From contig CT868059.1 of NCBI GenBank assembly GCA_000165425.1, positions 1-64,000 on the forward strand: DNA of 64,000 nucleotides, given 5' to 3'. A program made the position numbers and the translations under genes. Each line of letters starts with the position of its first letter. Position 1 is the first letter of the stretch. This stretch comes from Paramecium tetraurelia (taxonomy: Eukaryota). The notes beneath the pieces were generated by a model. It saw nothing but the letters and a program-made list of their open reading frames with translations, ran no database searches and was not told where the DNA came from. This document shows, one piece after another, positions 2,970 through 48,580 of this stretch.

Positions 2970-4960
2970 ATAATGACGAGACTAATTAAAATCAATACTA
3001 TCTAAACTATTGATGTGTAATTCTTGGCTTTTGAGATGTATTTGATGAAAAAATTCTTTGTGAGTTAGATCTACAATAGGCTCAATCATTTGGGTAATTT
3101 AACTGCTCTTGAAGGATATTCATTTGGAAAAGTCGATATTTTTGAAGGCTATCTAACTTTCTCAAAGGAAACAATTGAACAGCCAGAGTTGAAATATAAA
3201 ATGTCAGCAAAATTTGAAAAAGTTAGCAGAACTATAAATTTCAAAATTAGTATGTTGATTTTTATCAGTCAGATAATTCATAATTACAATTTGATTTTAA
3301 TATTAAGGTTTACTTGCAAAAACTTTAGAATGAATAGTTCAGATTATGAAATTATGAATATCTTTATGTTAGATTGAAAGCTGCCAACCTTTTTCAGTAT
3401 TTCTATATGTTTATTTATTTTCCAATATTTATTTGATTTTATTGCTATATTAAAGACATGATATCAAGAATCATAAAGGATTTTCTGAAAAATTTTTTTT
3501 TAAATACCATAATATTAGTAAAATTAATGATTTCAAATCTTTAAAGGGCAAATCCAGTTTATTTAATGGTAGTCCTTATTAATCTCAAAAAATAATTTCC
3601 ATTTTTTTATTAAGAATATGATCTGTCTTAATGAACGATAAATTGATTGATGATCATAGATATTCAAAATTGTTTCCACTCTTGATACTTCCTACAACTT
3701 TAAAATTGTATTTGAAATCTCTTAACTAACTTCCATCCATATGAAATATTTCCACCCTTTTCACTCTTTAAATGTTAAAAATAAACATTTTTTGCTGTTC
3801 TTCATTCTGATATATTCATGAATCATAAAATACCCAAATAATATCTTGCTTTCTATGATAAGATAAAACAAAAACTATAAATTTCAAACCTAGCTTCAGT
3901 TCTAGATAAATACTCAAACCGAAAAAGCTTGTAAAAAATTAAAATAAATATTTATACTAAAATAGGTACCAATTATTAGATAAAGAATATCAATTAATAA
4001 AATCACTCTTCTTATATCATATTTCAATATCAAAACTAATCTATCCTAAAGTCAAAAACATAATAAGTTTAAAGTTATGTTTTGTTTATACTAATAAAGC
4101 TAATTGTGTATTTTAAATACAATAAAAAGTTTGATACTTGATTTATTATTTATATTAAATCTAATACAAAATTTGATCGAATTGCATCAAGTTCGAATTT
4201 TAAAATTATGTGAATAAATGTCTTAATTTAACGATCCGTTTTCCTTTAACAAAAGGGTTGAGATATATCTAGAAATTTACATGTTGATTTTAATTTAATC
4301 TTAGGAAGCTTACCCTATAGAAGTAATTAAAAAGTAGTTATAAATTAAAAAATTGAAAAGTTTATTACCTAAGAAATAAATGTGTGAAATGGAAGCTTCA
4401 ACACTTCAATCATACATAATTTTATATTGAAATAAAATTAAGAATTTATAATTGCTATTTATATATATTGTTGAGCTTAGTATCAATTCTAAGTAAACAT
4501 GATAATTAAAGGGTTAAATCATTAACTAAAAGTGCTATCTAAGAATAGACTAATATTCATAATTCCACATTTTTTCTTTATTGTTCTAAATCTATGATAT
4601 TAAGTAAACTTATAGATCTTGTCAATCCCTAATAAATGTTAAAAAATAGCCAATTTCCATTTAAGAAGTTCTGTACTTTGCAATAACTTAGATATTTCGA
4701 AAACTAATCATTATTTTAAATGAAAAGTAAAAATTGAATTTGAAGATATTGGTGAAAAGGAAACTGATCTTTAGAATAACAAATTCTGCAAGGCACTTAA
4801 AAACCATCTCGATATTTGAATAGGGAGTTAAAATTTAATTGATGACATACAAATATCTGCTGAAAGGATTCTCCATTATGAAATATTTGAAGATCAAAAT
4901 AGAAAAATTTTCATATATTTGTCAACAAAGCTATTTGAATTTGAGATATTTTCATTTTTT
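2970..4960 (+). pseudogene. Possible decayed subtelomeric coding remnants
   Basis: Coding-like stretches (about 3090-3377 and 4594-4730) interrupted by TGA or frame changes; no coherent model found. Confidence 0.25.
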
Positions 4961-5058
4961 AACTAGGTCCTCCTTCTAAAATGGTTATGTTTAAAGAAGA
5001 GTGACTTAATATAAATATCAATGGATGTATTGAAATTAATATTATGAATAATAATATA

Positions 5059-6238
5059 TCATTAATAAACATCATCGTCATCTTCTTCATCCATTGGTCC
5101 GTCATTTCCGCCAGGTGGTTGTTGATTAGGGGGATTAGCTTGTTCTCTTTGAACATGTTAGGCTAAATTTAGTGAAAGAACTTACTAAAAAGATCTCCAT
5201 TTGCTTGTTTCTCAAATAAATAGTTAATTGCCATTTCCACATTTTTATCACATGCTATATAACCTTCTAAAGAGTCTTATTTAGTAAAACCGAGTTACAT
5301 AATCTAAAATAGAATCAATATAAGTACAGTTTCAATATCTTTAAATTCTTATTAAGTCAATTAGATAGATCCTGGAGGGGGGCCCTATTATTATCCTGCA
5401 CCCATAAGCATTTGTAATAACATTTCAGGGTTTTATGAAACTTAAGCGTGTAACTCTGGATTTGTCTATTAAATTTGTTGCAACAATTAAGGTAATAATT
5501 AGAGAACGGCTTATGGATTCTATTAGTACAACTATCTGAGTTATTAGATTTAATTTGGCTAACCAACTGGCTATTGTGCTGCAGGTGGTTATCCTTATCC
5601 GCTAGCAACTGGAGCAGGAGGATGTGATGTAACACCAGGAGGAATGCCCTAATTATAGAATTTAAAATACATTTAATAAGTATTCAACAGCTCTATCAGG
5701 GTTATTGAATGCTGCCTTCATAGCATTTACGCATTCCTCTCTTTGGAATCCCATAGACATTAACTACTCGATAGCTTTGTCATACTCTGGACCGGATAGC
5801 AATCCTGTTCCAGATCCAGCTGGTTTAGCAACTGGAGCAACTTAAGGTTGAGGCTATTATTGTGGGGGTAATTATTAAGCAGGTTATTAAGCTGGCTGTT
5901 ATTAAACAGGCTATTAGGCAGGTGGTTGTTAGGCTGGTTATGGCTACTGAGGTGCTGATTTCTAAGAATATTTTAAATAATTTTAATTACTTTGGCATTA
6001 ACCATGACTACTAAAAATTCGTTTTCTTAAATTCCCAATTCTGCAATAGTGGTTTTATCATCTAAGAGTGTACCTTTTCTTAATAATTTTTGTTGACCAA
6101 CTTCAAATTATTTCACTTAAAAGATCTTTTCTTTCACATCTGAAATCTAAAATATTTTGATTAATTATATACTGTGTCTGATCCTTCCACATCTAAAGGA
6201 AAGTTTTATCCGCTTAATGTTTTAATAATAATTTTCAT
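5059..6238 (-). CDS. RAD23: UV excision repair protein RAD23 (UBL-UBA-XPC binding-UBA)
   Basis: [53 protein letters not shown]1; [47 protein letters not shown]2. Confidence 0.95.
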
Positions 6239-6322: not shown

Positions 6323-6751
6323 TCAATTAAAAGGATCTAATAATAACTATTTTTAACTTTCCTTATCATTATTTAACTCCTTTTACTCTATTTTGATAAG
6401 TTATTCACTATTTTCTTGATAAATCATAATATTGTCATTCGTCGATATTGAATGGATTACCTTATATTTTCTCTGAGGCTTAGAAATAATGCATAATTCA
6501 CTCAACAAAATAGCTACTTTCTTCCTATCCATTTATTTGCATAACATTATGTATTCTTTGAAAACTGAGAAGTCAGGTTGATGATTTTGGAAATATATTT
6601 TATTGTTAATAAGATTGACTCAAATAATCAATTCAAATATATTTTTACGGAATAATTCTTAATTAAAACATCAAATATTACCGAAAATAAAGTATAGATT
6701 CAAATACTATATCCAAGAAACTATTGATTTAATTTCTAAAGATTTCTCCAT
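6323..6751 (-). CDS. Small hypothetical protein
   Basis: Open code-6 frame ...FSVFKEYIMLCKQMDRKKVAILLSELCII...LLLDPFN*; 5' exon structure uncertain. Confidence 0.5.
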
Positions 6752-6807
6752 TCAAAACTGTATTTGATAAAATATATAAAGATTGTAATAATCATATGGA
6801 AATATTG

Positions 6808-9800
6808 TCATTATTGTTTCTTGGTTTTCTTTTTGCTAAAGAATTTTTCTAAAGCTTAAATATCAGATTCATTGTCTAGATCCATCATTTCTTCTACATT
6901 TAGTGGTTCTAAACTAGTAATAATCTAAGCTTTTTTTCTAAAAATAATAGTTAGTTTCTTACTGCTGTTGAATAACAATCCCAAGATTAATTTTCATATC
7001 ACTTATTGCCTCTGCAACTAATTATTATCTTCGCTTTAATAGAACACTATCATGGTCTATTCTTGCTGTTGGATCTCCAATGGAAAACTTAAACTCTGTA
7101 TTTTTGAACATCAAATATAATGAATCAGCTATTTTGGAGATTGATTTTAATAAAAATTGGTAATCATTACCAACTTTTGGCCTATGGATATTATTGTAAT
7201 TTACTCTATAAATTCATTCCAAAATAATGCGATAGGTCTAGTAGTATCAGGACAATCGAAACAATGTAACCATGCTCTAATACGGATGTCACTAGCTAAA
7301 TTTAATTCAATTTCTCCCTTCATTTATGTTCTATAGGCAAAGTATTCTCGAAAAGCTGATTACATGCTTAAAGCCCATTTATTGAGCATGCATTTATTTG
7401 GTAGTGCTGATATTTTTTGAACCATCAAAGGAGGTAATTTCATGACTTCCAAAATTAATTAAGATTTTATATTAGAAGAAAGTGCTTTTACAACAGATCT
7501 CCATCCATTTCGATTTGTTCTGATATCTTTTTTATCAATAGTAATATCTTTTAATGGAGCACCACCTTTCAACTCAAGAATTTGTTTGCCTGGCTTTAAT
7601 TGATAGACAGGAATCGAACCATATGCACATGAGATCTATATTAGTCTTCCTTTATTAACGGAATAAGTAATGAATTCAAAAACCATCTCCTTTAAGTTAT
7701 CCAACTTTTCATCAAAATTACCCCATCTCATTAAGATGGCCTACTCCATAGCTGGTTATTCAAAAACCCATCTATCTTCATATTCTGGATTCCAAGCAGC
7801 AGGAATATAAACAGCATTACCTTCATACTTATTAATTGCTTTATCTATTAGGATGATGCCTATTTCTCTTCTCAAGAATGAACCCCTAGGTACATCTTTT
7901 TCATCTGGAATAGGTATTCCTGTTGCTTCAATCAATCTAATTTCTGCTAAGAAATTATTTTTAATATTAACTTTATCAAGAATGCTTTGTTTAATATTGA
8001 AATTAGATGCTTCAACATAATTTAGACCTTAATAAAAAAATCCACAATTATCAAGAACTGGTTTTAGTTAAGAGGATGGAAGATTTTGTAGTTTTTTATT
8101 TTATCCCCTAACAAAACTCATAATAAAGTTTTAAGGTAATTATAAGAAAATCTCTTTCAAATCATGTAATGAGATTCTTCTGCTACCCTTGATATTCATT
8201 ACTGCAGCTGAAGCTTTGGCTGACATTCCTGATTAGTTTTTTTGTATGAAATAAATAAATTCATCTATATCAATGGATCCAGATTTATCCTCATCTATTT
8301 CAACGAATAAATCTGTTAGTTCTTCATTTTTAATAAGTACTCCCATATTTTAGAATACTTAGCTCACTTGCTCTTTAGATAACATTCTTGTAGTTGGATT
8401 ACAAACTTATCTGAATTCTCTTCTCAAATCTTCTAATAAGTCATCTGCTTGCAGAAGTTCTTTTTTTAGGATATCTTTAACTATATGCGAGAATTCCTAA
8501 TATGATATTGTTCCACTTCTGTCTCGATCAAACTGAGCAAAATACTAAGATAACTCTTCAGTTCCAGGATTTAAACCTACAGATTGAAGAGCCTTTAGCA
8601 ATTCCCTTTAGTCTAGTTATTGATTTTTGTTTTCATCAATTTGGTTAAATAAATCCAAAATTTCTTATTCTATATCTTAACTTTAGACAATATTATCGGC
8701 TTATTTTTTTATTTATTATTCTGTTTATTTTGACTGAAACACTAATCTAAATTCATTAATAGAAATATGTCCACTAGAATTAGCATCTAGGTAATCATAT
8801 AGTTCTTCGCATTGAGTAGCAGATAATCCAAATTAAGCATCTAATGCTTTTTTAGTAAATTAAACTCTATCAATTGTGCTATTTGAATTCGGAGGGAAGA
8901 AATAAAGTGCAAAGTCATCATATGTTTTACTTCTCTTCTTCAAAAATTCATTTATTATAGGGAGCATCTTATTGAATTTTTCTTTGTTTTGAGTATTCAA
9001 TATAGACTTACGTTAATCCTTTTATGCTAAACCAAATTGTTATTTCTCATCCTCTTAGCTATATTAATTGATTTTAGTTCGATCCACATTTAAAAATTTG
9101 GCTAAATCGCTCAAATTTATGAACCCATTCTATTACAATAATTATTTAATTGATTTGATTTCATCGGCTGATATAGACCCTATTAATTTCTTACTTACAC
9201 TCAAAAAATCATTAAAGGGTATTTGATTGTATCCTCTTTTATCTAGTTGCTCAAAAAGATTGAAGCAATTTTTAGCTAATACTGCTTCTGATAGATGTAA
9301 TAAAAATGAATCTAGTACTGATTATAAAGCAGGATCTTTAGATTGAGTATCCTACTTTTATGGAATTACAATCTAATTTAAATTTAGAACTTCCTCGTAA
9401 ATCTTAAATGTTATCAAACCCTTTTACTCAGTATCCCAATACTAAAATGCTTCCCTCAATTCTCTTTCATTCAAACCAATTTTTAAATTGCTATTGATCT
9501 TATCTAATTATTTAATTTGCCAAGTGGGTTGATTCTCTCCAATTAGACCCCAAAGTTATTGTTTTGTATATTGTTTATGTTTGATCATAGTGAAGTTAAG
9601 TGCTTTGGCTAAAAGTTTACCAGGATTATTCATCTTTAAATATGGTAAAACTATCCCCATTTGATTTTACCCTTATGAATAATAGTAGTAATATTATTAG
9701 ACATGAGGTGTTGGTGCTAGTATTTCTAAAAATTAAAATGCCAATTCTAATTGATCAGGCCTTGATATTTTTAATTCTGGAAGTGGTGTTTCATCATATT

Positions 9801-12800
9801 GACACAGTAAATCAAAGAGATCAATATTTTTTTAGATGCACTTTTTTTGTATTTCTTAATCATAGAAATTTAGATCAAATTCAATAGGAATTTAAGATTA
9901 TTAAGGTTGAGGTTTGGCAGCTCTGGATTAATTAGGATCATATTTTTAAGAATATTGATCTTATCCTTGTGATACCCAGCTTTATTCAAATTTAGCATTC
10001 TGAACCCATTCTTGCTTTTTATCGAATTCTTATGGAACCTGTTTATTATACATTGTATTTTAAGGAGGATAGGCAATAGAACTATTAGGGATGGATGCAT
10101 TAAATGAAGCTTCCTATTGATTATATTATGGATTATATTATTAGTATTATTATTATTATTACGGTAACTAATTATTATATTAAGGTTTCTATTAACCATT
10201 ATATTAAGACTATTAAGCATTATATTAAGGTTATTACCCAGGAAATTATTGTTATTACCCAGGAAATTATTATTATTATTATCCAGGAAATTGTTGTTAT
10301 TATCCAGGAAATTGTTATTATTATCCTGGATATTGTTGTTATTGTCCATATTGCATTTATTAACCATTTTATTATTATTATTATTAATACTGAGGTTATT
10401 AAAATTGAGGAGGTTCTTAAAATTAAGAAGGTTAAGGTTAAACGTTTTATTGATATGGTTATTATTGAGGAATCTACACTTATGGTTATGATTATGATTA
10501 GATAGATTATTATCTTTATTACTATTTAAAGCCTAAGATAAATCTAAATTAATCTAATTTTTCTGAATATTCTTAATCAAAATATCTAAAAAATTAATCT
10601 AATTCAAGCATCGAGTATTTTTAAAAATAATTGATATAATTCGCAAATTGTTTAAATTCGATAAATTAAGATCCTTATGAAATGATTAGAAATAAATCAG
10701 ATAATTATTATTCCATCTGTGGATTGCGGCCATTTAACATTACTAATTTCATTTCCTGAATTTATTTAGCAGTGATTTCATTTCTTTTATATATTTAATA
10801 TTCAAACTCTGTGAAATTAATTTTACCATCTTTATCCATGTCAAATATATCAAATAGTTATTTTTAATTATCAACAGTCGTACTGTATCCAATAGTCTTC
10901 AAAAGTAAGGCAGTAAATTCTTCAAATGATATGAAGTTATTTTTATCCTTGTCAGTCTACCTATACATTGCAAGGAGAGTGCACACCTCCTTCTCTAGAT
11001 ATTGAGTAAAACTTTTAACAATTCTATCAATTTCCTAATTTGTATTGAGCACCAAGACCTTCCTACTCTCCTTGTACTTGGCTAATCCTAAGTTAATGAA
11101 ATCGTTGAAGGCATAATAATCGATGTAATCTTGAGCATCCTATTCTATTATTGTGAGTAATAGTTCCCATTCATTATCATTCAAAGCAATTGATTTGTCA
11201 GTCATTCCCATCTTAAGTGCTTTTACTTTGACCTTTCCCTTATGATTGATATCAAACTCCTAAGAAATCTCGATTACATTAGTGTTTTTGTTTTTGAGTT
11301 GGTCTCTTAACTTGGTAGCAATGGCCTCTATTTTAGTGGAAGGTGTTTCAACTTAATATTGCTTAGCTTTTAAACAAAAGATTTTGTAGTTGACGTTGTT
11401 ACCTTGTAATGCACCTAATTAATCAGCCAAGGCCTTCATTTCAAGCAATTAAATATTGGGACCATTATTTTTCTTGAGTACCATGATAAAGGTGTCTAAA
11501 TCTAATTTATTGGTATAATTTTCATCTCTTATTTCAAACTCTCCCAACAAGGCTGGAGAATCTTTAGCAAATTTCATTACATCATCAAATATACTCAACT
11601 ATTATTTATTGATTGTTGCCATAACCCTAGGCTTATCTTTGGTACACACTTTAGATTTGAATTCACTGATACTTATTGACCCATCCTAATTGGAATCAAG
11701 AAGTAAGAACAAATTATCAACTGGTTTATTCCTTGACATGGGATCGATGTCTCTAATCAATTTATAGAATTCTTGTTTATCTAAAACGTCATTTCCATTT
11801 TGATCATAATTATAAAACAGTGATGCTGTTGCCACCTTACCTGATTAAATAGTTTAATTCAAATTAATCAATAATTACTCCGCTTCTTCACAATCATGCA
11901 TCAGAACTGCCAATTTATCATATTGCAAAAACTTCTTATCTTCTGGGGATAGTAAATATTAAGCCAACTATTTGAATTCCTGGAATTCAAAGCCTAAACT
12001 CACTATGATATCTTAGAAGGCATTTAGCAAGATCTATCCTCTTCCTTTTTTATCAAATATCTCCAAGGATTCGTTATTTTCCCTTAAAGCATCTTTTAAT
12101 CGAAAGACTGCTTTCATAATCTAAGGAGTTAATTGTTTTGCAAATGTTTATGCGGTCTGTTTATATTTATATTTTGTCTATTATTGCTCTGATATGTCAT
12201 TTTCTTAATGTGATATCTTTTGCTTAAATTCATATAAGTTAATTGTATTGTCTCCATTGGCATCCAATTTTAAAAACAAAGATTCTACAATCTTTTAATC
12301 AACATCTCCTACTAATTACACAAGAAATTCAGCAAATTCTCTTAATTCTAATTTTGTATTTCTATTCGCATCATACTTCTTAAATACCTATTCAGGTTTG
12401 CTTTATTCATATGCTAATTCTGTATTGATATCTGATAATAGTTTATTTGAGGCTTCATCAAGTTTCAAACCCTATTTTAGTTTATGCAATGATATGTTTT
12501 ATTAATCCTATTGGATACTGGTTAAGAAATCTTAGAATTGATTATCTCCTGTATCTAATTACAATTGTTTATTGACAAAGTCTTGGAACTGCTTTTTTCG
12601 AATATATCCATCTCCCAAAGTGTCCAGATCCTCAATGTCTGCAAATGTGATTCTCTTCTTCTTCATCTATTTATTGAGCTACTCCAGAAACATAATAGCT
12701 TTATGTTGACTGTACCTATACTGCTCTATTTTTTTATCCTTATAATACAGTATTGCCTCAATGAGTAAATCAACATCAACTAATGACTTATCATGTGGTA

Positions 12801-15057
12801 CTAGAAGATTGTTCAATAGTTCTTCTTACTCTATTTCATAATCTCCTTTGTAAATTTCTAATTATCTGATTTTTTCTTTATATTATGTAATAGACATCCT
12901 TTAAAATGTGCTTTTAAAATACTATCTAGGAGTTTATTCTCTTTCTTGTAATTATTTATAGATAAATTGTAATAGTTGTTTTTGAGGATCAAATTACTTT
13001 GCATTAAATTTGATTGACTTATGCATAGATTCTTCTGGATCATCAAATGCACTTTTCTTCTCTTGTTTCTATTCCTTCACTTCTAATTCTTGGAGTAACT
13101 TCCAATTAGATATTTTTAGATCTTTACCCTTTTATACCATTGCATTAATGAATTGAGGGTACTCTATTTCATCTTTCACTCCAAAGATGCTCATTAAAAA
13201 TGTGAAATCTGAGTTCTTAAGACCATCATTTGCTTATTTAAAAGCGTTAAACAATTAATTTTTGGTGATTATGCTGGCGCTTTTTGTATTACTTCTTATC
13301 AGTTATGGCAATGTCATAGAAATACTCGCTAAACCATTGACAATTTCCTATAGAATTGCTCTGACATCTTCATTTATCAATTCTTCAAAGAATACTCTTA
13401 CATTTTCAAAGGAAATAGATTTCTTGTTTGTTGGATCCAGATGCGATAGTAACTACTTTTCAATATCAGGAGAAGGATGAATTTTAAGATCATTCAAGAA
13501 CCTATGTATTTCTTCATGACTCAATTCACCTCTTGATTTTGTGTCATAATGTCTGAAGAATTAGATAAAAATATTGTGGATTTCCCTTATTCCCCTATAC
13601 ATCTTCATTTTTAAATCATTGAACCCCAACTATTATTGATTCATAGACTTTGTATCTTCACAAAATTACTCATAATATATGATATTCTTCTTCTTAGGGT
13701 CATATTTCTATTGAATAATTGGAATATCTTCAGCAGCCAAATTTATTTAGTTGTCTTTTAGTGTTTAATCGAATTTTTCAAATTGCAGATATCCTACTAA
13801 TTCTGTGTCATTCTCTTTGAATTTCTCCAATAAATTAATTTTTTGCTCTTCAAGATATTTATGCAATTCCTTCATCATTTCTGATAGTTCCTACTCCTAA
13901 TAGTCATTCAATTCTCCTAACTTGATAATCTCCTTTTAATTTTACACCCATTAAGATAAATCAATCTCATCCTTTTTTGAGTTGTCAAACTATGCCAGAA
14001 ATGCTGATTTCTCCTTTGCAGTCACTTCAATTTTCAAATCCTGTAAAGCCTCCCAAAAGAATTCAGGTTTTATTCTCCGACTAACTGGTTATAATTAATA
14101 TTTGGATAAGTATTATGTAGCTGTTTGTGATTTCAATTATTTTGCTTTTTCCTTCAGTTCTTCTAACAAGAGTTCTGGCTATGGTGTTATTAATGTTTCA
14201 TCTGCAATTATCGCATTTTAAGAAAAAAAGTCTTGAACTAGATCTTCAACTTCTGACAAAGGTGGTCGATTATTGGGGTTTTTTTCCAACATTTTCTCTA
14301 TTAAATTATTGAAGTGGTTCCCATATGCTTTTCTCACTATTTCTCTGATTTCAATCCCCTTTTAGGATTCATGAGCCTAAAAATCTCGGAACACTAATAA
14401 TTCTTCCATTTCTCTGAGTGATGCCATTTGCAAAAATACCATTCCCAATTACCATACATCTATTTTTTGGGGATCTCCTCCGAATTAATCGGCCTAAGCA
14501 GTCCCTTATGAAAATCTTTGACTTTGGTTTTTTTTTAAAGTGGCAATGGATTCAGGAGGTAAGTAATTTTCGTTATTCTCATTTGAAAATTAATTGAAAT
14601 CTGTAATCACACAGCCTCCGTCTTCGTCCTCAAATAAATTCGAAGGCTTGATTCTGCAATGAAAAAATCTCTGTGTCTCAGTTTTTTTCGATTTATGTAT
14701 TTTATCCAACCAATTGGTAAATTCATCGACGTATTTTTGCATCACATTCATGGGAATGAACTTTCCCTATCTTCTATGCAATTTAATTAAATCCCCCATC
14801 GAATGTTTAAATTTCTTATAAACGAAGCTCACACCTTGTTTATCTTCCCAATATCCTTCTGGTATATAGATGCCTGGTTTTGATAATCGAATTTTCATTT
14901 AATCGATTTCATCAATCAATTCTTTTTATGTCTTCTTTTGAGGAACGACCTGCTTGCACACCCATTACTCTAAACCCTTCTTATATAGTCCTGTTTTTCC
15001 ATTGATTGGATAAATAATTTAAAACTCTCCTTATTGAAGTTTTTTCAATTAAGACAT
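6808..15057 (-). CDS. Giant (~2,730 aa) pseudokinase + many EF-hands + Q/P-rich linker + nephrocystin-1-like C-terminal domain
   Basis: Same frame at checkpoints 15057, 14460, 10620, 8160 and 7860; introns of 23 and 25 nt near the 3' end; HCRIKPSN, TDFN, YLPPE, KIDVWQLG; many DxDxxG EF loops; C-terminal GIPIP..RREIGI..AAWNP..WVF..VFEF..ISCAYG..LELKGGAP. Confidence 0.88.
10231..10350 (-). repeat. Coding tandem repeat (F/Y)PGQQQQ x5 inside the giant gene
   Basis: 21-24-nt units such as tttcctggataataacaacaa on the minus strand. Confidence 0.85.
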
Positions 15058-15611
15058 TAATATAATATATAATCTTAAATATTTGAATTTCTAGTGAAAT
15101 TCTGAACATACAGTAGGTTCCTGGACAAAATGTGGGATTAAGATTCTGTAAAAAACCATAAAACAGGATTACTGTTCTAAATGGCTACTTACAAAAAATG
15201 GGATTAACTGAATGTTCAAATATCTTATATATAAAATAAAGATAACCAAACTAATACGATCTTTGAATCTTATTAGTTAAATATATCTGAATAAACCATT
15301 TGAGAATTATTTTAATAAATAATCTGTTAACTTTTATGATACGCGAGGGAAATAATTATAAAAATATTTAAACCCTTTTCGTGTCTGAACGTTCACTTCA
15401 AAAATGCATTAGGAAATTAATTAAGTAGAGTAATTAATTGCCATTCTTTTGATTTCAAGAAGTTAACTTTTTGGTTTGGTGGAATTCGAAAATGTTGATC
15501 AGACTTAATCATTAATAGTAATAGGCGTGTCTCATTTCTTTGAGCGGGTTTCGTATTTTGCCATCGATCCATCATGGTTTCAGATTATAATCATTATAAA
15601 TATCATTTAAG

Positions 15612-16910: not shown

Positions 16911-19457
16911 ATGATGAATTTGAATGAGGAATAAATCACTTTAGAGAGTGATGCTCTTGACTTAAATATTTATTCAGTAAAAAGTATATTAATAATCATA
17001 ATTATGAATGCTATTAGTTCTGCAGAGAATAATCTTTTATGGAATGGGGAGAATGTATAGGACGGTATTTGAATCAAAACATAATTAAAGAGTTTTCAAG
17101 GCCAATCGGTTTGCATTTGCAATTCTGCCAGCTTGAGGATCTATAAAAAAACACATACGATGACATAAATGCATTATCAAGTCCAACGATCAATAGGAAG
17201 GAAGTGGAGCATAAAAGTGCGTTGCGATCATCATAGGGGTCTGTATTTAGATTTTTGAAAATATTGCAAAAAAAAACACAATAATTGAAGGAGAACAGAA
17301 ATAAGCTATCCTTCTTTCAAAAGATTTATTAGGAGAAAATACTGCATTCGGAATATAGCAAACAACAATAAACTTAAAGCAAATATGTTTTTGATCCAAC
17401 AAATTTTTTAGCTTTAGTTTTTTAATTTCTTAAATGTTTAGTTATATTTTTATTACTTGTGATTATAACCTATTTTTGGAGTTTTGATGATATGAGACAT
17501 TTGGTTGACAATAATAACTATTTTTATATCGTGATAATATTGTTAATAGACATATCACTGCAATTCAATTTAGCAATAATAATTCGAGGATAAGTATTAA
17601 TTAATAATAAGAAATTAGATAATTTATGATCGAATAATCATTTTTAAAAAGTACATTTCAAGACAATTTTTTGAGGACAGTATTTTTTTGGTTTCCTTGG
17701 TATTAATTATTCACACATCTTAGTTAATTTTTGTAATAATATTTTATGTTAATGGTATTGGAATGCTCGTTAAAATCATAAGAAAACTTGAGGATACATT
17801 TGATCTGAGTGTTAAAACAACAGAACTCTTGAAATTGTGGAAATTGCTCTTTTTCATAAACCTCTTGGCTCATTTTATCGCATGTATTTGGCATTATATT
17901 GGATTGAATACAATTGATGCCAATAATAATTGGTTGGATTCGAAACAGATAAGAGATGAAACTAATTTTATAAAATACATATACTCCTTTTATTGGTCAG
18001 TTGTTACAATGGTGACAGTTGGATACGGAGATATCACTCCACAAAATTACATAGAAATGATATTATGTGTAATAATAATGTTTCTATCTTGTGGAGTGTA
18101 TGCTTATTCGTTGAATACGATAGGACAAATAATCTCAATCTTGAATCATGAATCAGACAGATTAGAGAGGAGTTTTAGAACTCTAAATAAATATTTTAGA
18201 TAGCACAACATTAAGGATGAATTGCAAAGTCGAATCAAAAACTATTTGGAGTACAAATTAAAAGAGGAAGAAAAATCGAATTAAAGTGTATAATTCCCAT
18301 AATCATCTTAGGTTTACAAAATTCTCGATTAACTGTCTAATCATCTGCGATTTAAAATCATATCTGAGATCTATTAGAGCATGCTCTAAAAATGTCCTTT
18401 ATTGTAAACTAACTTCTCAAAATCTACTCTTCAGAATTCAACTAATTTACTTGAAACCTTGAATTATGAACCGGATGACATAATAATTAATTAGTATACT
18501 GAGAACGAGAATGCTCTCTATTTTATTGATTAAGGTACTGTAGAAATATGTGAACAAAGAACTAAGACTTAATTGATGGAATTCACATCTGGGGAGTCTT
18601 TTGGGGAATATGAATTCTTCACTAATTCTTAGGCTGCCTTCACATATAAGTGCAAGAGTCACACAAGAGTGTTCAAGCTTTCACGATCCAAATTACTAGA
18701 AATCCTCAATAAGGAAGACTTTGAAATCTTTCATTAGATTAAACATTCTTTTGAATTCAACATTCCTGTGAAACATGCCTAGTGTATCATATGCCATCAA
18801 AATGATCATTTCATTCATAAATGTAAGTTATTGTACTATATTCCTGACATTTCTAAAATGGTCATCAGATAACAAAATTTCAAGCAGAGGAGGGAATTTA
18901 AGCAAAGAAGAATGCAAAGAGCAAATACCTTCTCTCTTTTAGCTGTATCTACTTCGTTTATATATTTTTAGTAAATCTAAGAAAAACAATTTGAATATTA
19001 TCAACAATATATTTAGGAATATTCCTAAAAGGAACTTTTGGATGATGAAAATGTAATAATAGGGGCTGACTCTCAAATTACTTCATTGATGTACAATACG
19101 CTAAAAGCTTCTGAGATTTAAATCCAATAAAATCAAATGGATTATGGAAAGGATATGCTCAATAAAAATAGCCCAAGGAAATTGAATTCTCTAAATGTCA
19201 AGACAAAATAATCTCTACCTGAGACAGGTCTACAAATTGAGACGCAAAACAAACTGAAGAAGTCTTCAGTCAAAATACTAGACGGGCCCTAAAATTAAAC
19301 AATGGTTTTTGATAGGATGAAGGACTATAATTAGTATTTTAGTGAAAACAATTATGAATTGCAAATCCGTAGGTACAATTAGAACTATATTGAACGAGGC
19401 TTTCTATCTTCAATTAAGAAAAGAACAGGGAGGGCGATGAGATTTATTTAACTATGA
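16911..19457 (+). CDS. Cyclic-nucleotide-binding-domain K+ channel (EAG/HCN-like)
   Basis: AHFIACIW, pore YWSVVTMVTVGYGDITP, C-linker and CNBD (LYFIDQGTVE..FGEYEFFT). Confidence 0.93.
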
Positions 19458-32784: not shown

Positions 32785-33662
32785 TCAAATTTTTCTTTTT
32801 TTCGACTCTTAATTCTAATTCTAAGGATTTTGCAATTCTTAGGCTAATTGAACCGATTGGTTAATCCAGTCATTGAGCCAGGGGAATCTCTTGTAATTCA
32901 AGACTTGCTAGGAGAGGTTAAATATGCGATAAGTACATTAATTTGATCGGACACTATCATTTCCATAATAAAAACTACATATTTTCTAATCTTCTATTAA
33001 TTCTCATTCAATGCCAATTGTAGATATTGATCTAATTAAATCGGATGCAATATTTATACTTAGAAAGTTTGAGTAATCTTATTAATAGGAAGTATTTTGG
33101 AATAATTGCTTGACGAATGAATTATTCATTTTCTTGATTACTTTTTTCTCCTTCATTTGTTCCTTACTCTGAGTTTATCTTTGGTGCTTCATACTTTTAC
33201 GAATAATAAATTTTATCATTTCTTCCCTTGTCTTCACAACCTATTGATAGATGATGCTAGATGCATACTTGCAAGTATCTTGTGAAAATCTAAAAGAAGA
33301 CTGATTTTAGTGCCTTTTTTTAAGTCCAAAAACGAAAAGCCTTTTAATAAGCGAAGATCTATTCTTTGGATAGGTAATTGAGATGTCTCATGAGGAAATC
33401 GATCATTTTATAGACCTCCTCCTGGAGTTATTCTTTGGTCAGACAGATTAATTAGTGTTGTTGATTGAGGTTGAGTAATTTGCGCAGATGATGATTCTCC
33501 TCTGCCAAGACTTAGAATGTGGATTGGTAGTGTTATATCTCGTTGGGGATGGAAGTGTAGTGCACTGGAATTGGGCACTGTTGGATGTACAATTATTGTT
33601 CCTCCTAAATGGCTTATGAGCTATTTTACTTATTTGATTATTTAGTTTTCTTCTTCTTTCAT
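32785..33662 (-). CDS. Hypothetical ciliate-family protein (KRFPW motif)
   Basis: Long code-6 frame with small introns; KMNNSFVKQLFQN..Y..FL; YKRFPWL; 3' end uncertain. Confidence 0.7.
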
Positions 33663-33777
33663 TTTTTGTTATAAGGTTGAGTATTCTAAAAAACAAGTGA
33701 GAGATTAAATTAATTTAAAAATATTATTACTTCTCATCATTATATAAACTATTATATATATTTTATTTAATTAAGCT

Positions 33778-36523
33778 ATGCTCAAATGCCAAAGTCTTTA
33801 AAAGGCCCTACTCAAATATCTGAAGACCTTTGAAAACCAATCCTATTAGTCATGGAAATGGCACAACTACACTTAGTGGGCGGATCTTTCATTCAGGCCA
33901 TTAATAATAATGTAGATAATATTTATCATCATTAAACTATTGATCATCGCCAATAACTAACTACTGTGGGTCATTTTTGGAGTTCAGATTTTGGTTCATT
34001 CAATCCTATTTTTATGTCTTCCCAGAATCATTTACAAAGAGTCCTACTTTTTGTAGCTCGTCCCCTTAATATAACAGGAATGCTTTTGCCTCCTTTGTTA
34101 CTTTGCCTACAACGAAAGCTACCTCATGTTCTACACCACCATTTGCATCATCTTCCAAAGCATGTATTCAACCATCTTATGGAAGGTGATCGCAATACTA
34201 ATCTTTTTCATTCAAACTATCTTGCTTTTAGATCTATCCTCCTTTGAAGGACTCTATCTCACAGTCGCTCTGCTATTCATGCAGATCGTACGGAAAGAAC
34301 TCCAGCAAATGCAGCACTTCCTCAATTTACAAGCATTATTTTTAATCATCGACTCCACACCTTAGGCTATGTGTATAGCCCATAAGGATAAAAATTGGTT
34401 ACTCTATTCCAACAAAGTATTTGATAATTTAGCATATAAATTAGAGAATACAAATCAATCTGATACTGATTAATCTCCAGAAAAAACAGCAACTAATAAC
34501 TCTACTAAAAATTAATTAACTTTTTTGTAAAATTTATAATTAGATGAATTAAATAACAATCAAAAGTTTGTCTAATTTGATTTTGATGATGATGATTTAT
34601 ACTTCGATGATCAATACAAAATTAAGAATGTTACTTACAGCAAGGATAAAAATTCAATCTAATATTCTAAAGCCTTCTCTTTTGAAATACCAACTGATCG
34701 ACCCAAAAATCATGTTCAATTTTAGAGGTTTTTCCAATCATTTAAAAATCCTGATGATGAATCCATCATCAAAAAAACCTTCACGTCTGATGTCACAATG
34801 AAAATCGAAGTCAACAATCCACCCCAATTCCACTTGTTATCAGCAGGTAAGAAGAATCATCCTAAGAAATTGAACCTCCCAAATAAACAATCTAAATCAG
34901 GTAACTTAATGACTCCAAGTCGAAAAGTATCCGCTGATTTCTTATTGAATAGTAAGGAAAATAGGAGTTCTGGCCACAAACAGTCTCTGCTGGATCAAGA
35001 AGCGAATTTAATAAATAAGACAAAACCAGTTTATGTCCACAAAATGAAATTCTTAATTAACGTATTAGAGAATTGTAGAATCTTTGATAATGATGATGAG
35101 TTGTAAATATATTTCATTCATGAAGTCAATCAAATCTTATTAAGAGCAAAACTAAAAAAATTAGAATCAATCAAAAAGAATCTCCTGAGATCAATTTCTC
35201 ATGAATTGCTCACAAATCTTAATGCAGTCTTCGGATTCATCAAACAAAGCTAGGACAGGTTGCTGAATAAAGAATCCTGTCATCTCCAATTGGAACAGGC
35301 TTTGAGTTACACAAAATTGCAACTCTATAAGATCTATGACTTCTTCGATTACAGAGACATTCTAGAAGACAGTTTCCAATTGAAATCAGATAAATTCGAT
35401 ATCAATACAGTCATTTTAGAGTGTGTGGATTTGTTTAGAAATCAGATCGAAAGGAAGTCCTTAGCAATCAATGTGAAATTACCCGAAACCTCCTATATAA
35501 TTAGCGGAGACAGACAACGTTTGTGTTAAGTACTCCTGAATTTGATTGGAAATTCTATTCGATTCACTTACAAAGGAGAAATTACCATCACTGTTTAGAA
35601 GTAAGAATACATGGAGTCAATGGAAGGAATTGAGGTACATTCAGCTAATTTACAGGATAACAATTTGCTGGAAGTTCAAGTGAATGACACTGGGATAGGC
35701 ATGAAGGAGGGTGAGTTGAGCATTTTAAGAAAAAAGGTATTCCTTTTAATTAGAGTAGTTACATTTAACTGACGAGGATGAAAAGGTTTCTAAGCATTCA
35801 GTTGGCATAGGTTTGGGATTGTCTGTGAGCAAGCAAATTATCAAGTTGATGGCTCCGAACAATCAAAACTACATTTCTGTCGAATCAAAAGAAGATCAAG
35901 GCACATGCTTCAATTTTCTATTGAAATACAATGAAGAATCGAATCTAAGCACAAATTTCCTCTAAAGGTCCAACAATCACACAATTCCTTATGTGGATGC
36001 TCAAAGTACGTAATAGGTTCGCGTGATGAACTACAATAAATGTAATAACCTTCAGATCACTGAGAAGTAGGGTTAATCAGAATTGTAACTAGACAATCTG
36101 ATAAATTAATGCAATTGCAAAATTGTCTTGATTGTTGATGACGAGGAGTTCAATGTGGATGTCCTTATACATATGGTCAAAAATTTAGGATTTGATACAG
36201 ACTTTGCTTTCAATGGGAAGCAAGCGATTGAAAAAGTGCAAACCAAATTGCTCAAAAGGTGCAGTCAGTAGAATTGTATTGGATACAACTGCATCTTGAT
36301 GGATATTAATATGCCAATGATGAGTGGATGGGAAACTGTGTAAAGAATTCGACAAATAGAAAATGAGATCCATCTGAGCAGAACTATCCCTGTGGTTGCA
36401 GTTACTGGTTTCTGTAGTATCAAAGATCAATAGAAAAGCATTAATGAAGGATTTAATAGTGTTTTGATTAAGCCTGCTACAAAGGAGAAGTTAATTGAAA
36501 CTTTTAATCGTCTCAGTATCTGA
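33778..36523 (+). CDS. Membrane hybrid histidine kinase 1 (TM-HisKA-HATPase-REC)
   Basis: SISHELLTNLN; QVLLNLIGNSIRFT; NDTGIGM; GIGLGLSVSK; LIVDDEEFN; LMDINMP; LIKP. Confidence 0.93.
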
Positions 36524-42877: not shown

Positions 42878-42919
42878 TAAGATTATATTAAAGAAGAATA
42901 AATTATTTAAAAAGTGAAA

Positions 42920-45708
42920 ATGAAATAATTAGAGATGAATGGTACTTAATTGCTTTCTCAGAAAAAATAAGATTTATGGAATATTTTCAAAAGAGATCAT
43001 TCAATTGCCATTTTTTTTTGTTTTTAATTAACTATAAACGCACTCGTGATAATCTAATATGACTCCGAACTAATTTTTACAATTACAGTTTGTATTCTAA
43101 ATACAATTTTTGCAATAACCACTTAATTGATTGCACTTACTAATAAAACCATCCTATTTAAGAAAATCTGTATATTTATCAGTAAATTATCTACACTATT
43201 AATTATTGCATTACTAGACATATAATTGAAGAGCGCTTTGATAATACTTTTGCATTCCTTTGAAGTCTAAGAAGCGGATAAAAAGTATTTTTGCTACTTT
43301 GAAATCATTGCAACCAGAGCCATCACTCTCTTCATTATCATCATCAATTTTGACTTAATAGCAATCATATCAGTATCATTCTAATTGATTTTGGAACTAA
43401 ATCGCTTGCTCCAAGACAGAGAAGTGAAGTAGATCGTATAAAATCAAAAAAGCCCAATGGCCTTAAGTCTGATTTCCTAGTAAGAATAGGATAACTTGTG
43501 GAAAAATAGAATTTAAATGATTCCTGTATCATTTATAATGATTGATTCAAAAACCCAAAAAATCAATTTCAAAAACAGGACAGCTCATCACTTCTTTTCA
43601 ATGTTTTGCGAGAGTGACTAGGAATTCGAGGATCTCCTCCTCCATAAATTGCAATTCAATTTAGTTCAAGACAACATAGATCAGATTTGTCAATCCTTCT
43701 CCTACTTAAAAATACGCCAAAGACTCAGAAGCAAATAGAATCGTTTCTCTTAGTAGGACAATTAGAACTGCGCCACTCCACTTCCCCAATCAGGATCCTC
43801 AGCAATATAATGTATATCTTCAAAATAGGGCGATTCCTTCGATCACAATGCCCTTAAATTTACTTTGGCAGAAATTATAACAAACCTTTCTGATGGTCTC
43901 TTCTAGGAATACATCATAAATAATTCTTTGGAATTGCTTTGTCATCAAAACTATTTAGGACTTGTGGAAAATGCTAATACTAATCATACTCAATAGAAGA
44001 AATTCTAGTTGTCTGGGTCCATCTTGACCAATCAACAAAACGAAGAGATAATACTCCTTCTTAATGACATATCCAAGTAAAATGAACTATAATAATTGAT
44101 CTCTTAGGATGAATTCAAATCGAAAGTAAGTATAATAAATATTATTTTTAGATTGTAGAATCCTTTTCACATGAATTGAGAACCCCTTTGAATGGAGCCA
44201 TTAATTTTCTATCTGCCTTTTTGTAAGACACTGATCTTACTGAAGCAAATAAAAAATAATATATAATTCCAGCAATAAACTCTCTTAGGATCTAATCATA
44301 TTTGATTAGTGACATAATAGACTTCACATCTGCAAGTTCAAACAATTTAGAGCTCTTCATTAAGGAGTTTTCTATGCGAGAATTAATTAATGAGATTACA
44401 TCTCTTTTTACAATGTAATTTGCAGAGAAACATCTTGAATTTAGAGTAGATCTAATGGATTGTTATACTAATTCAGTGACCAGTGATTATAGTAAACTAA
44501 TGTAAATATTGGTGAATTTACTTCAGAACTCCATCAAATTCTCAACTGAGGGATTGATTGTCCTGAAAATTTAATCTCAAACTAAGGAAATTCTTAAATT
44601 TACTGTTACGGACATGGGACAAGGAGTTTCCTAGTCCAACATTTCATAAATTCAATTGTAATTAAATAATTTGAAGAATCAGAAGGAGATTCAATAAAAT
44701 AAGAAGTGGCATGGATTTGGATTATTGATATCTGCTACATTAGTTTAGAAACTAGGACCATCTGATAAGAGCACCATTAAGTTTGAGTCAGATGGAATCA
44801 ACATGGGTTCTAAGGTATCTTTTTTTATTAAGAATTAATAAGTGAAACATAATAGTATTAAGTAACCTACAATTAGATAAAACACATAAAGGTTTTAGAG
44901 TTCTGTACATTTGACTTCTTCGTTCAACAATCTCAATGGTACAATAATTTAAACATCGGACTAGGGATTGGTAATGAAGAATACTCAAAAATAATAAAAA
45001 ACCAAAATTAGCTCATAAAAATCTAATGATAATTCCATGTTTAGTGAAAGTGTTGTTTTGGACTCTTTGGATTAGAAGTTTAGTTTGTTGCATCCTGTTG
45101 AACCTTCCTTGATTACCAATATCCTTTGTGGTTCTCCTTAAAAGCAGGTCGATAGGAAACCTTTTGTCAAGAACGAGAACTCCTCATAAAGATCGAATAA
45201 CTCAAAGATACTGAGCGTACAATTCATTAAGTAGGCAGAAGAACAGGAGGATGAGGAATTGCTGTAAACGTATAAGAGGCGGAAGAAATGTCAATGTCAA
45301 AGGATTATGTCTGTGGATGATGAAATATTCAACCAGAAGTCAATTCAGATGTTGTTATGCAAATTGGGATTCGAAGTTATTCTAGTAATTTTGTTATTTT
45401 ATATTTAGGCATTCAATGGACAATAAGCTTGCGTTGATATTTTGAACATTAAAAAATGCGGGAAGAAGTGTTCATTATTAACTCTCATCTTGATGGACTA
45501 CTAGATGCCCATTCTAAATGGGTGTCAGGCTTCAGAGAAATTGATTCAGATGATGAATGATAACATTATACCGAAAATTCACATTGTTGGTTTAACTGCT
45601 TTTACGAATTCAAACGATATTGAAAATTGTTTAAAAGCAGGAATGAGTGATGTCCTGCATAAGCCGCTTAATCTAAAGGAATTTAAGGAAATTCTTACTT
45701 TAATTTGA
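42920..45708 (+). CDS. Membrane hybrid histidine kinase 2
   Basis: SFSHELRTPLN; QILVNLLQNSIKFS; TDMGQG; WHGFGLLIS; SVDDEIFN; LMDYQMP; LHKP. Confidence 0.93.
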
Positions 45709-45881
45709 TAAACCTAAACCATTTTTATATTAATACTTTATGTTTTGAAAAAATTAATGATTTTACTGTTAAATTTATATATTATATACTTGCGAAAATA
45801 ACAATAAGTTGTCCTTACTTTGATTTAATATATATTATTTTAAATAATAATATTTTTCATAGGCTATTAGAATCACTAAGC

Positions 45882-48580
45882 ATGAACAAGAAATCACCGG
45901 CGAAAGATATATTTCTTTATAAAACTCTTTTCTTACTAGCAATACAAATGATTTTAAATATTTGTCTAATTAATGAATTGACAGAAATGAAATCCAGCTT
46001 AATTGTTATTATTCTCAAAATAATATTAGATATAATCTCATGCTCTTTTTTATATCTATTAAAGAATAAACTTACTCACAATATAATGTTGAATATCATA
46101 TTTGTAAATAGGATACTTGAAATTGTTGTAATTTCAATAATACAATTACCTAGTGGCATATATTTATCTATTCAAATGATGTATTCGTTGGATATTAAAA
46201 CTGATTAATGCATGGCAAAAATAGCCTTGCTGGCTAATATTTCCGGAAAATTAAGCCTAATATTATCAGTATGTTTAATTTAGATTGATGCATTAACTTT
46301 CGTTTGCTCATTAACATTAATATCCCTTGATATTTTAAGATTCATTTAATACTAATAGAAGTATCAGAGTAAAACTCATTATTTGCAATTACAATTGAAT
46401 GAAAAGCAGTCTCCCTCTGAATACTCAAAAACAAGTGACAATATTTGGAGACAGCGAATTTAAGATATGAATGTGTAAGTGTTGATATTGAGTTATTCGA
46501 ACCTATGTGTTAAATACATAAATTAATGCTTTATGGAATTGTTTAGATGTACCATGGAAGAAGAATTACAGAAAATTATTTTACAAGAATTAAATTTTTA
46601 GATACCTTAGCAATACACTGAGATTTTCAAAAGTGCCTCACTCCAGATGAAAAAGTTAAGAGATAAATAAAGAGATCCCTCTTGCAGAGAGTTTAAGAAT
46701 TTGGAATCGACCAAACAGGTTATTACTATATAGACAAAAACTTTAGAGCAAATTCTTGAAGAGTATAAATAAGGGATTTACGAGTCTTTAATTCAAGCTT
46801 CTAGAAATAAGGCTCTTGATATATCTTGCACTCTCAAATTGCAGAATTGCAATCCTATTTCTCTAAGTGGGTAAATCATTAGCGACAACCAAGAGATCAC
46901 TATCTTTTTAAATGACATCTCAAAATAAACTGAATTATCTTAATAGAAAATCAAGGATGACTTCAAATCAAAGATCATTGAATCATTTTCTCATGAAATG
47001 AAAACACCCCTGAACAGTGCTAAAAATCTGATAGAATCAGCAATTTCAGAGTCCTAAATTGATAATACTATCAAGAATTAGTATTTGCATCCAGCATTTA
47101 ACTCATTAAAACTCTAATCATACATTATCAATGACATAATAGACTTTTCAAACTATTATGCAAATTCATTGCATCTCTAGACTAAAGACTTTACGTTCAA
47201 AGAGTTGATAAATGAAATTAGTGGGTTGTTTTAGTAATAATTCGAGATGAAGAATATGGGATTGAAAATAGTGATGGTGAAGAATAGCTTTCTAACATTT
47301 AATACTGACTACAATCGTCTAATATAAATAATAGTGAATTTGTTGGCTAACTCATTAAAGTTCTCATACAGTGGCAATGTGGTTGTTCGGTTTAAATCGC
47401 TTGAGTAGAATATTTTGAAAATATCCATCAAGGATTAGGGGATTGGTATTGAGTAAGAGAAATTGGATAGAATCCAGAAAACTCTAAGCCAATTCCAAGA
47501 GACATCGGATTTCATCTACAATAAGAATTGGCATGGATTTGGACTGTTAATTTCATCAATTTTATTGACCAAGCTTTCAAATAATGCAAATAAATAGTTA
47601 TTGTAAATTAAAAGTAAAGGAAAGAGTTTGGGAACAAAAGTTATCATCTTAGTTGAGGACTAGAATAAAGTGGAAGACCAAAATAGAGGGTATTCGATTA
47701 TGATCTCGAGAAAATCAGTTAGATTTGGAACAAAAATAAATTCACAAAATAAAATATAAATTGGAACTGTCATTGTGACTTCAGTAAAGCCGGTGTCGAA
47801 CTTCTAAAATAATGATGTTGTGACTCCACAATTTAAAACAATAGAGTTATAAACAGATATGATATCAATCGATAAATCCAGTGATTTCTTTCCCTTAAAT
47901 AATAAACTCAAAGAATTGAGATCGTCTGATCCCAAGTTGATCAGTGATCTAAACGATTCACAAAGCTCGGATTAGAGTGAAAATATCAAATTCGGACAAT
48001 TAGGGTAATCAAACGATCCTCCTTCAATTCAATAGCAATTTAAAGATGTAAAGTCAAGTAGGAGTTCTCGGTCACAGGTTTTTAGTATAAAATAATTAAA
48101 ATTATTGGAGGATTAGGAGAGCCAGTAAAATCTATTGAATTTTGCTCAAAAAAAGAAATGTCAGTGTCGAAGGATACTCTCAGTAGATGATGAAATCTTC
48201 AACTAACATTCCTTATGCATGTTGCTTCAAAAACTGGATTTTGAAGTATTGGTGGTTAGTATTAAATAGTATAACCTTAGGCTTTCAATGGGTAACAGGC
48301 AATAGATAAGTTGAACCAATTAAAGAAGTGCTGCGATAATTGCTAATTGCTTGATGTGATCTTAATGGATTATCAGATGCCAATACTGAATGGAATTGAA
48401 ACTACAAAAATCATTTTGGAGATGATAGAAGCCAAAAAGATCCCCTTCATCAACATCATTGGTTTAACAGCATTCACAAGTGAATCAGACATAGTAAATT
48501 GTTTAGATGCAGGCATGACTTATGTATTATCTAAGCCTTTGAACCTAAAAGACTTTAAGGACTTATTGTCAAATTTATGA
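45882..48580 (+). CDS. Membrane hybrid histidine kinase 3 (tandem paralog of HK2)
   Basis: SFSHEMKTPLN; NLLANSLKFS; KDQGIGI; WHGFGLLIS; SVDDEIFN; LMDYQMP; LSKP. Confidence 0.93.

Follow-up and report, generated by a model that had tools for sequence, protein, structure and literature searches.

In juvenile nephronophthisis, NPHP1 is deleted more often than any other gene, and the C-terminal domain of its product is still poorly understood and without a matching solved structure. Zhang and Aravind defined an NPHP1-type C2 domain (NPHP1-C2) and described human NPHP1 as an SH3 domain followed by NPHP1-C2 and an alpha-helical domain (Zhang and Aravind, 2012; PMC3495828). In their main text, the N-terminal region of the family is variable, with SH3 or EF-hands depending on the clade, the EF-hand forms being probably Ca2+-responsive, and each newly detected ciliary C2 version, including NPHP1-C2, forms a well-supported clade tied to ciliogenesis. 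Residues 242-685 of mouse NPHP1 are sufficient on their own to pull down NPHP2, NPHP5, and NPHP8 (bioRxiv 10.1101/2021.01.20.427412). Paramecium and Tetrahymena are leading models of the ciliary transition zone, yet two Paramecium inventories mark NPHP1 as absent, and the comparison table of a Tetrahymena STORM study leaves both the Tetrahymena and the Paramecium columns empty for this protein. Paramecium NPHP4 and RPGRIP1L (NPHP8) are found at the transition zone, and Ca2+-dependent deciliation is impaired when they are depleted (Gogendeau et al., 2020; PMC7093003). Here, we analyzed a 64,000-nucleotide window of Paramecium tetraurelia DNA (contig CT868059.1, positions 1 to 64,000) and, within it, the gene GSPATT00037101001 (6808..15057, minus strand, as for all of its features given below), whose product joins a kinase-like head, two EF-hand regions separated by a glutamine- and proline-rich (Q/P-rich) linker, and a C-terminal module of the NPHP1-C2 type. 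The best overall explanation, to which we give about an even chance, is that the protein is an NPHP1-C2-family scaffold at the ciliary transition zone that responds to Ca2+.

The window has a composition of ~26-38% G+C and was translated with the ciliate code (NCBI table 6). The minus strand holds an open reading frame (ORF) of 2,777 codons (7111..15444) that is free of TGA and contains 224 TAA or TAG codons read as glutamine; the next longest ORF overlapping 6808..15057 has 367 codons. The first 129 codons of the long ORF are non-coding in appearance, and an ATG at 15057 opens the sequence MSQLKKLQQ. Splicing of two short GTA...TAG introns, of 23 nucleotides (nt) at 7182..7204 and 25 nt at 6938..6962, leaves three exons and a product of 2,733 residues that extends from the ATG at 15057 to a TGA at 6810-6808. 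This product is identical to the P. tetraurelia database protein GSPATT00037101001 (XP_001435714.1, A0CC00_PARTE), which is labeled only "unnamed protein product" or "Protein kinase-like domain". An earlier note, made by a model from the letters of the sequence, had drawn a single frame of ~2,730 residues at 6808..15057, and its coordinates and length proved exact. Both introns were recognized by pattern and in transcripts: when four sequencing runs (X3, X11, X21, and X22, of which X11 is RNA-Seq) were aligned to 6600-15600, contigs of X11 and X3 lacked exactly 25 nt at 6938 and 23 nt at 7181, the latter placement being equivalent to that of intron 1 within one base. These contigs therefore derive from spliced RNA. 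We are close to certain that the locus is one real, transcribed macronuclear gene with the modular architecture outlined above.

The C-terminal module comprises the last ~440 residues and is conserved along its whole length. In the family alignment it begins with a pre-C2 segment of the form LP..F..SF...LPS..L.P (7972..8100), continues with the C2 core (residues 2363-2541; 7435..7971), and ends with an alpha-helical domain and an acidic tail (SLEPLNVEEMMD...; 6811..7434), the last portion being split by the two introns. The core carries the family motifs GIPIPD, W.P.YEDRW.F, FEF, SC, and GG.P, the helical part carries FWN, and the tail carries P-F/L-x-[ILV]-x-E-[LM]. A full-library search with 298 residues of this module returned 216 proteins at E <= 0.001, which differ widely in length and N-terminus; those with species names are all from ciliates (Paramecium, Tetrahymena, and Cyclidium). 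When 31 of the 150 listed relatives were scanned, EF-hand families were present in 22 and absent from nine, and Pkinase was found in none of the 31 at E <= 1e-4.

An AlphaFold2 model of the same 298 residues (predicted local distance difference test, pLDDT, 88; predicted template modeling score, pTM, 0.87) shows a beta-sandwich at approximately positions 44-222 and helices at 241-297. Foldseek aligned this model with 154 PDB entries at E <= 0.001, and all of the matches listed are C2 domains, led by Aida, PI3K, DOCK, NEDD4, and CEP120. VIA-align, run against 48,161 chains, placed the Aida C2 domain at Z 12.3 (root-mean-square deviation 2.6 over 132 aligned residues), with 46 chains at Z >= 8. 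The model of a 530-residue homologue, P0006 (pLDDT 81), contains an EF-hand pair, a C2 domain, a five-helix domain, and a terminal helix. On these models, we are confident in predicting a C2 beta-sandwich followed by helices. At the sequence level, a PDB search with the family profile gave a best E of 0.13 and nothing relevant, so that no solved structure matches by sequence. Identity across the C2 segment is 95, 87, 87, and 99% in Paramecium comparisons and 36 and 34% in Tetrahymena comparisons. The C2 domain is the best conserved segment in five of the six comparisons, the exception being Tetrahymena P0173, where it reaches 34% against 36% for the second EF-hand region.

The link to human NPHP1 was made in the 2012 study. 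Its supplement (file 1) prints an NPHP1-C2 alignment with human NPHP1, green algae, stramenopiles, Ichthyophthirius, Tetrahymena, and five P. tetraurelia rows (PMC3495828). One of the latter, gi 145499458, equals residues 2371-2541 of GSPATT00037101001 once gaps are removed, and another, gi 145495732, is of the type of its ohnologue (the second copy from the whole-genome duplication). By eye, the printed human and Paramecium rows share ~40 identities over ~150 aligned positions, a count that is approximate because text taken from a PDF may not keep alignment columns, and they have in common the motifs IP.P, A.W.P..W.F, FE, SC, and L.GG.P. The NPHP1 motif order that the earlier note had described for the C-terminus is real. 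Taking the family assignment from Zhang and Aravind (2012), we regard membership of the Paramecium sequence in NPHP1-C2 as very probable.

Comparison with animal NPHP1 reveals likeness at one end of the protein and difference at the other. The two share the published family alignment, its motifs, the C-terminal position of the module, and a helical domain after C2 (PMC3495828); in ciliates this helical domain is present in our model and in that of P0006 and is conserved across the family. In contrast, the Paramecium protein has no N-terminal coiled coil, Glu-rich stretches, or SH3 domain. It has instead ~2,300 residues of pseudokinase, EF-hands, and Q/P-rich linker, is nearly fourfold longer, and belongs to a family that is multi-copy in ciliates. 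With EF-hands N-terminal to C2, it is one of the EF-hand forms of NPHP1 noted in PMC3495828. The EF-hand plus NPHP1-C2 architecture and the membership of this protein were therefore already in print in 2012, and the alignment and text of that study mean that the NPHP1-like reading is supported but not new. Its kinase-like head is not mentioned in the main text of PMC3495828, although Figure 3A of that paper may draw it. A literature search on "NPHP1-C2" returned only PMC3495828 and one unrelated preprint, and the 2012 assignment is overlooked by later studies of the Paramecium cilium.

Upstream of the module lie the EF-hands, for which the earlier note had described runs on either side of a Q/P-rich linker, as is indeed the case. 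The first region (10807..13563) contains Pfam pairs from residue ~499, canonical loops at residues 932, 1085, 1121, 1369, and 1406, and a degenerate partner at 889-911. The second (8260..9273) contains a degenerate hand at 1929-1953 and canonical loops at 2091, 2141, 2177, and 2255. Pfam assigned EF-hand_7 at E 6e-55 (eight stretches) and EF-hand_1 at E 1e-41. Canonical 12-residue Ca2+ loops number nine, five before the linker and four after it, as counted with a PROSITE-type pattern, and degenerate hands adjoin them. That note had also proposed counting the hands with a hidden Markov model; a model seeded on the protein's own loops contributed no more than weak, degenerate hands, and for its nine seeds the argument is circular. 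The last four hands form a calmodulin/centrin-like unit, with centrin and calmodulin matched at E ~1e-12 (P0001 residues 2252-2403). From these loops, it is quite probable that the EF-hands bind Ca2+. The linker itself (residues ~1512-1722; 9892..10524) is of low complexity, with 89 Q and 24 P among the 230 residues of the stretch 1491-1720. It is the least conserved segment, with identity of 47-57% outside the closest orthologue and a length that varies between species. Part of it consists of 21-nt and 45-nt tandem DNA repeats (10174-10434, with 21/45-nt repeats mapped at 10222-10343) coding for units of the QQQQFPG type. As a separate observation, most giant poly-EF-hand relatives (P0002-P0005, P0172-P0177, and others) carry a precomputed Pfam entry, PF23564, which was not returned by our local Pfam scan of the whole protein or of 350-residue pieces. 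PF23564 was ruled out as the C-terminal domain, as there are short relatives that have that domain and no PF23564.

The N-terminal head has the fold of a protein kinase (residues 30-270; 14248..14970) and is predicted to be catalytically dead. The Pfam Pkinase match (E 7.2e-13; 49 bits vs. a cut-off of 31.7) covers profile positions 25-257 of 263, leaving positions 1-24, the end with the Gly-rich loop, outside. Matches to PDB kinases are weak, with SPAK at E 7.2e-05 and STK32A, Aurora A, and Nek7 within 7e-05 to 9e-04. In the SPAK alignment, HCRIK stands opposite HRDLK, indicating that the catalytic Asp is replaced by Arg, and DFN stands opposite DFG. The HRDLKPxN catalytic loop is thus represented by HCRIKPSN (residues 133-140; 14638..14661) and DFG by DFNQ (residues 153-156; 14590..14601, aligned also with relatives), and the alignment of relatives leaves INGKTGLY (residues 18-25; 14983..15006) as a degenerate remnant at the site of the Gly-rich loop. 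The earlier note had read the HCRIKPSN and DFN replacements in this way and had taken the Gly loop to be lacking.

Among 14 giant relatives that we aligned, seven have the head, namely four Paramecium and three Tetrahymena proteins, and the remaining seven begin straight away with EF-hand-type sequence; within this set the head is therefore confined to these two genera. The catalytic Asp is lost in all seven kinase-bearing proteins (HCR, HGR, HFN, or HLN). The beta3 Lys (WVCK) and the catalytic-loop Asn are kept in all seven and the DFG Asp in six, and the Gly-loop region is unconserved even between Paramecium species. With the HRD Asp lost, DFG changed to DFN, and the Gly-rich loop degenerate, the sequence marks the head as a conserved pseudokinase, predicted to be unable to phosphorylate by the usual mechanism. 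In a tree of the C-terminal module, head-bearing proteins, a Cyclidium fragment, and a 442-residue metagenome protein form a single clade (support 93/90, under the star threshold). The calcium-dependent protein kinases (CDPKs) and CCaMK of alveolates and plants likewise place a kinase fold before EF-hands in one chain, and the PDB matches include the EF-hand chain of a CDPK (2aao). In CDPKs the kinase is active, and a compact regulatory domain of four EF-hands follows it immediately. Unlike them, the Paramecium protein lacks the catalytic Asp, spreads its EF-hands over ~2,000 residues, and ends in a C2 module.

A survey of this architecture across ciliates had been suggested by the earlier note. 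Annotated proteins show the full-length form in P. sonneborni, P. octaurelia, P. pentaurelia, P. primaurelia, and Tetrahymena; a T. thermophila protein of 3,429 residues has the same architecture by precomputed PF00069 and EF-hand annotation. In P. octaurelia, P0200 is 97-99% identical to the window protein and P0004 66-87% identical, and P0004 matches the ohnologue row gi 145495732. From these sequences, both whole-genome-duplication copies seem to be retained across the aurelia species.

We infer the localization, the partners, and the Ca2+ response of the protein as follows. The C-terminal module, to which the self-sufficient pull-down fragment of mouse NPHP1 (residues 242-685) corresponds, would dock it to the NPHP module (NPHP4 and RPGRIP1L) and/or to the membrane at the transition zone. 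The nine canonical loops of the two EF-hand regions would bind Ca2+ and shift the conformation or the partners of the scaffold, while the Q/P-rich stretch may act as a disordered, flexible spacer. The kinase-fold head would most likely be a binding or allosteric module and not an enzyme, and it and the EF-hand array together could render the C-terminal anchor Ca2+-responsive. On this analysis a transition-zone or basal-body site is tentative, with a likelihood slightly short of even. Paramecium RPGRIP1L offers a parallel, being likewise a ciliate C2 protein of the NPHP module that has gained EF-hands, but its EF-hands are C-terminal and proved unnecessary for signaling deciliation (PMC7093003), whereas those of GSPATT00037101001 are N-terminal and far more numerous.

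Several observations weigh against this scheme. A C2 fold is generic when taken alone, and neither Pfam (no family at E <= 10) nor NCBIfam (one meaningless hit, 16 bits vs. a cut-off of 208) recognized the C-terminal 348 residues. In an Atlas feature search with homologue P0009, the 442-residue metagenome protein, the nearest named cluster was "putative Nephrocystin 4" (0.92; 182 shared features) and the second was Nephrocystin-4 (0.88), with no nephrocystin-1; the tool itself describes scores of this size as no more than leads. None of the hits in three word-indexed homologue searches (4, 14, and 30 hits) was named nephrocystin, all being ciliate-type or unnamed, and the name was also absent from 30 clusters of relatives. 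Pfam scans found no SH3 family in the protein or in the 31 scanned relatives (E <= 1e-4), and the animal-type N-terminal coiled coil is not present. The family is multi-copy in ciliates, with at least five P. tetraurelia and two Tetrahymena proteins. One survey at strict thresholds confined NPHP1 to opisthokonts (Barker et al., 2014; PMC4092220), and NPHP1 is absent from Paramecium both in Table 1 of Gogendeau et al. (2020; PMC7093003) and in the table of the 2021 article "Using Paramecium as a Model for Ciliopathies" (PMC8535419). Finally, a literature search on the identifiers of the gene and its Tetrahymena relative, a search that did not extend to the supplementary tables of other papers, returned no papers.

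Not all of these points have the same force. The Pfam result is no evidence either way, because the local Pfam may predate models of the NPHP1 and NPHP4 C2 domains; Atlas cites PF28126 of Pfam 38.1. The 14-hit search was blind to an NPHP1 of ~700 residues, because its length range was 1,459-4,165 residues only. An Atlas search with the helical part of P0009 gave no usable hit. Absence of SH3 and coiled coil is not disqualifying, because the N-terminal region is treated as clade-variable in PMC3495828. The multi-copy state, on the other hand, makes one-to-one orthology with NPHP1 uncertain, and some copies may lie outside the transition zone. The NPHP1-like reading of the earlier note stands on the family alignment and the C2 fold, and is weaker than that note implied in view of the nephrocystin-4-like name nearest in Atlas and the number of P. 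tetraurelia members.

The most serious competing explanation accepts the same protein and family and places it elsewhere. It is possible, though appreciably less than an even chance, that the protein senses or buffers Ca2+ as a ciliate-specific component of the cortex or cytoskeleton, for example at the alveolar sacs, in the infraciliary lattice, or along the ciliary shaft, with its C2 domain serving as a generic membrane- or protein-binding anchor after a ciliate expansion. The number of copies in P. tetraurelia and Tetrahymena would fit such an expansion, as would the 216 relatives so unlike in length and N-terminus, and the transition-zone tables of PMC7093003 and PMC8535419 that leave NPHP1 out are consistent with it. 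The giant poly-EF-hand architecture is, moreover, unlike that of any characterized transition-zone protein. Against this location, however, NPHP1-C2 is among the well-supported clades associated with ciliogenesis in PMC3495828, and lineage-specific EF-hands also occur on Paramecium RPGRIP1L, a proven transition-zone protein (PMC7093003). The C-terminal module is, besides, the most conserved part of the protein.

If the transition-zone scaffold is favored, a bolder version of it can be drawn, in which this gene and its ohnologue would be the "missing" Paramecium NPHP1, and the EF-hand array, anchored at the transition zone, would supply the sensor, long sought, through which Ca2+ triggers ciliary shedding just distal to that zone, with the dead kinase relaying the conformational change. 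We consider this version unlikely. Were it true, it would account for the finding that the deciliation signal does not depend on the EF-hands of RPGRIP1L (PMC7093003). More generally, the 2012 assignment, re-checked here at the level of the fold, suggests that ciliates have NPHP1-type proteins wired to calcium. Should the protein be at the transition zone, accounts of how the NPHP module evolved would have to be revised, ciliate workers would have a tractable NPHP1 homologue, and the Ca2+ step of deciliation would have a concrete candidate. If it resides elsewhere, it would be one more large ciliate EF-hand protein.

A further alternative concerns the identity of the domain. The C-terminal domain could be of the NPHP4 type, or a separate ciliate C2 family, if the 2012 NPHP1 grouping was over-extended from weak similarity. 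The Atlas names for P0009 point in that direction, as does the restriction of NPHP1 to opisthokonts at strict thresholds (PMC4092220). The Atlas ranking may mean either that the C2 domains of NPHP1 and NPHP4 are closer kin than in the 2012 tree or that the clusters were mis-named automatically, and its scores are leads only. NPHP4 is also a ciliary C2 family, but it forms a separate clade in PMC3495828, and Paramecium has its own NPHP4 (PMC7093003). The signature motifs are common to the human and ciliate rows, which are bridged by stramenopile and green-algal rows, and the EF-hands lie N-terminal of C2 as in NPHP1, whereas for NPHP4 they lie on the C-terminal side (PMC3495828). The helical domain after C2 is likewise as in NPHP1. 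We therefore think that this alternative is quite improbable, and retain the NPHP1-C2 assignment.

The RNA data bear on whether the locus is one gene. Raw oligo-dT reads placed on it number 112 in X21 and 211 in X22; all first mates lie on the plus strand and span 6901-15027, and none falls in 15028-15600, a uniformity of direction and span that fits one minus-strand mRNA. It is very improbable that a kinase plus EF-hand gene and an EF-hand plus C2 gene were wrongly joined across the Q/P-rich stretch, for although no single contig or read bridges the full length, X21 and X22 raw-read depth is zero in 10212-10813, and RNA contigs break at 10445 and 10590, the zero-depth interval overlaps repeats of the Q/P-rich stretch that the aligner skipped, X3 contigs are present in every bin from 6600 to 15027, read direction is constant along the whole gene, the 2,777 codons lack TGA, and the full-length architecture is also annotated in the four other Paramecium species and in Tetrahymena.

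At the 5' end of the gene, X11 and X3 contigs stop at 15019/15020, 37 nt inside the coding region, and depth in 15028-15328 is 0.45 for X11 and zero for the remaining runs. This shortfall between 15019 and 15057 probably reflects thin coverage of a short 5' end, an explanation that we favor as the first 14 residues are conserved from one Paramecium species to another.

The neighbors of GSPATT00037101001 look unrelated to it. A RAD23-like gene with XPC-binding and UBA domains lies on the downstream flank (4911-5687, minus strand), and a cyclic-nucleotide-binding ion channel (Ion_trans, Ion_trans_2, and cNMP_binding) lies on the upstream flank (17688-19457, plus strand). Genes farther away include Dis3-like, VPS9, and hybrid histidine-kinase types. 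On the plus strand, 42914-48314 holds three consecutive long ORFs, of which the second and third have HisKA/HATPase_c and response-regulator domains and the first has no Pfam family, and another HATPase_c ORF is found at 33517-35772. Their domain content suggests that these ORFs are tandem hybrid histidine-kinase genes.

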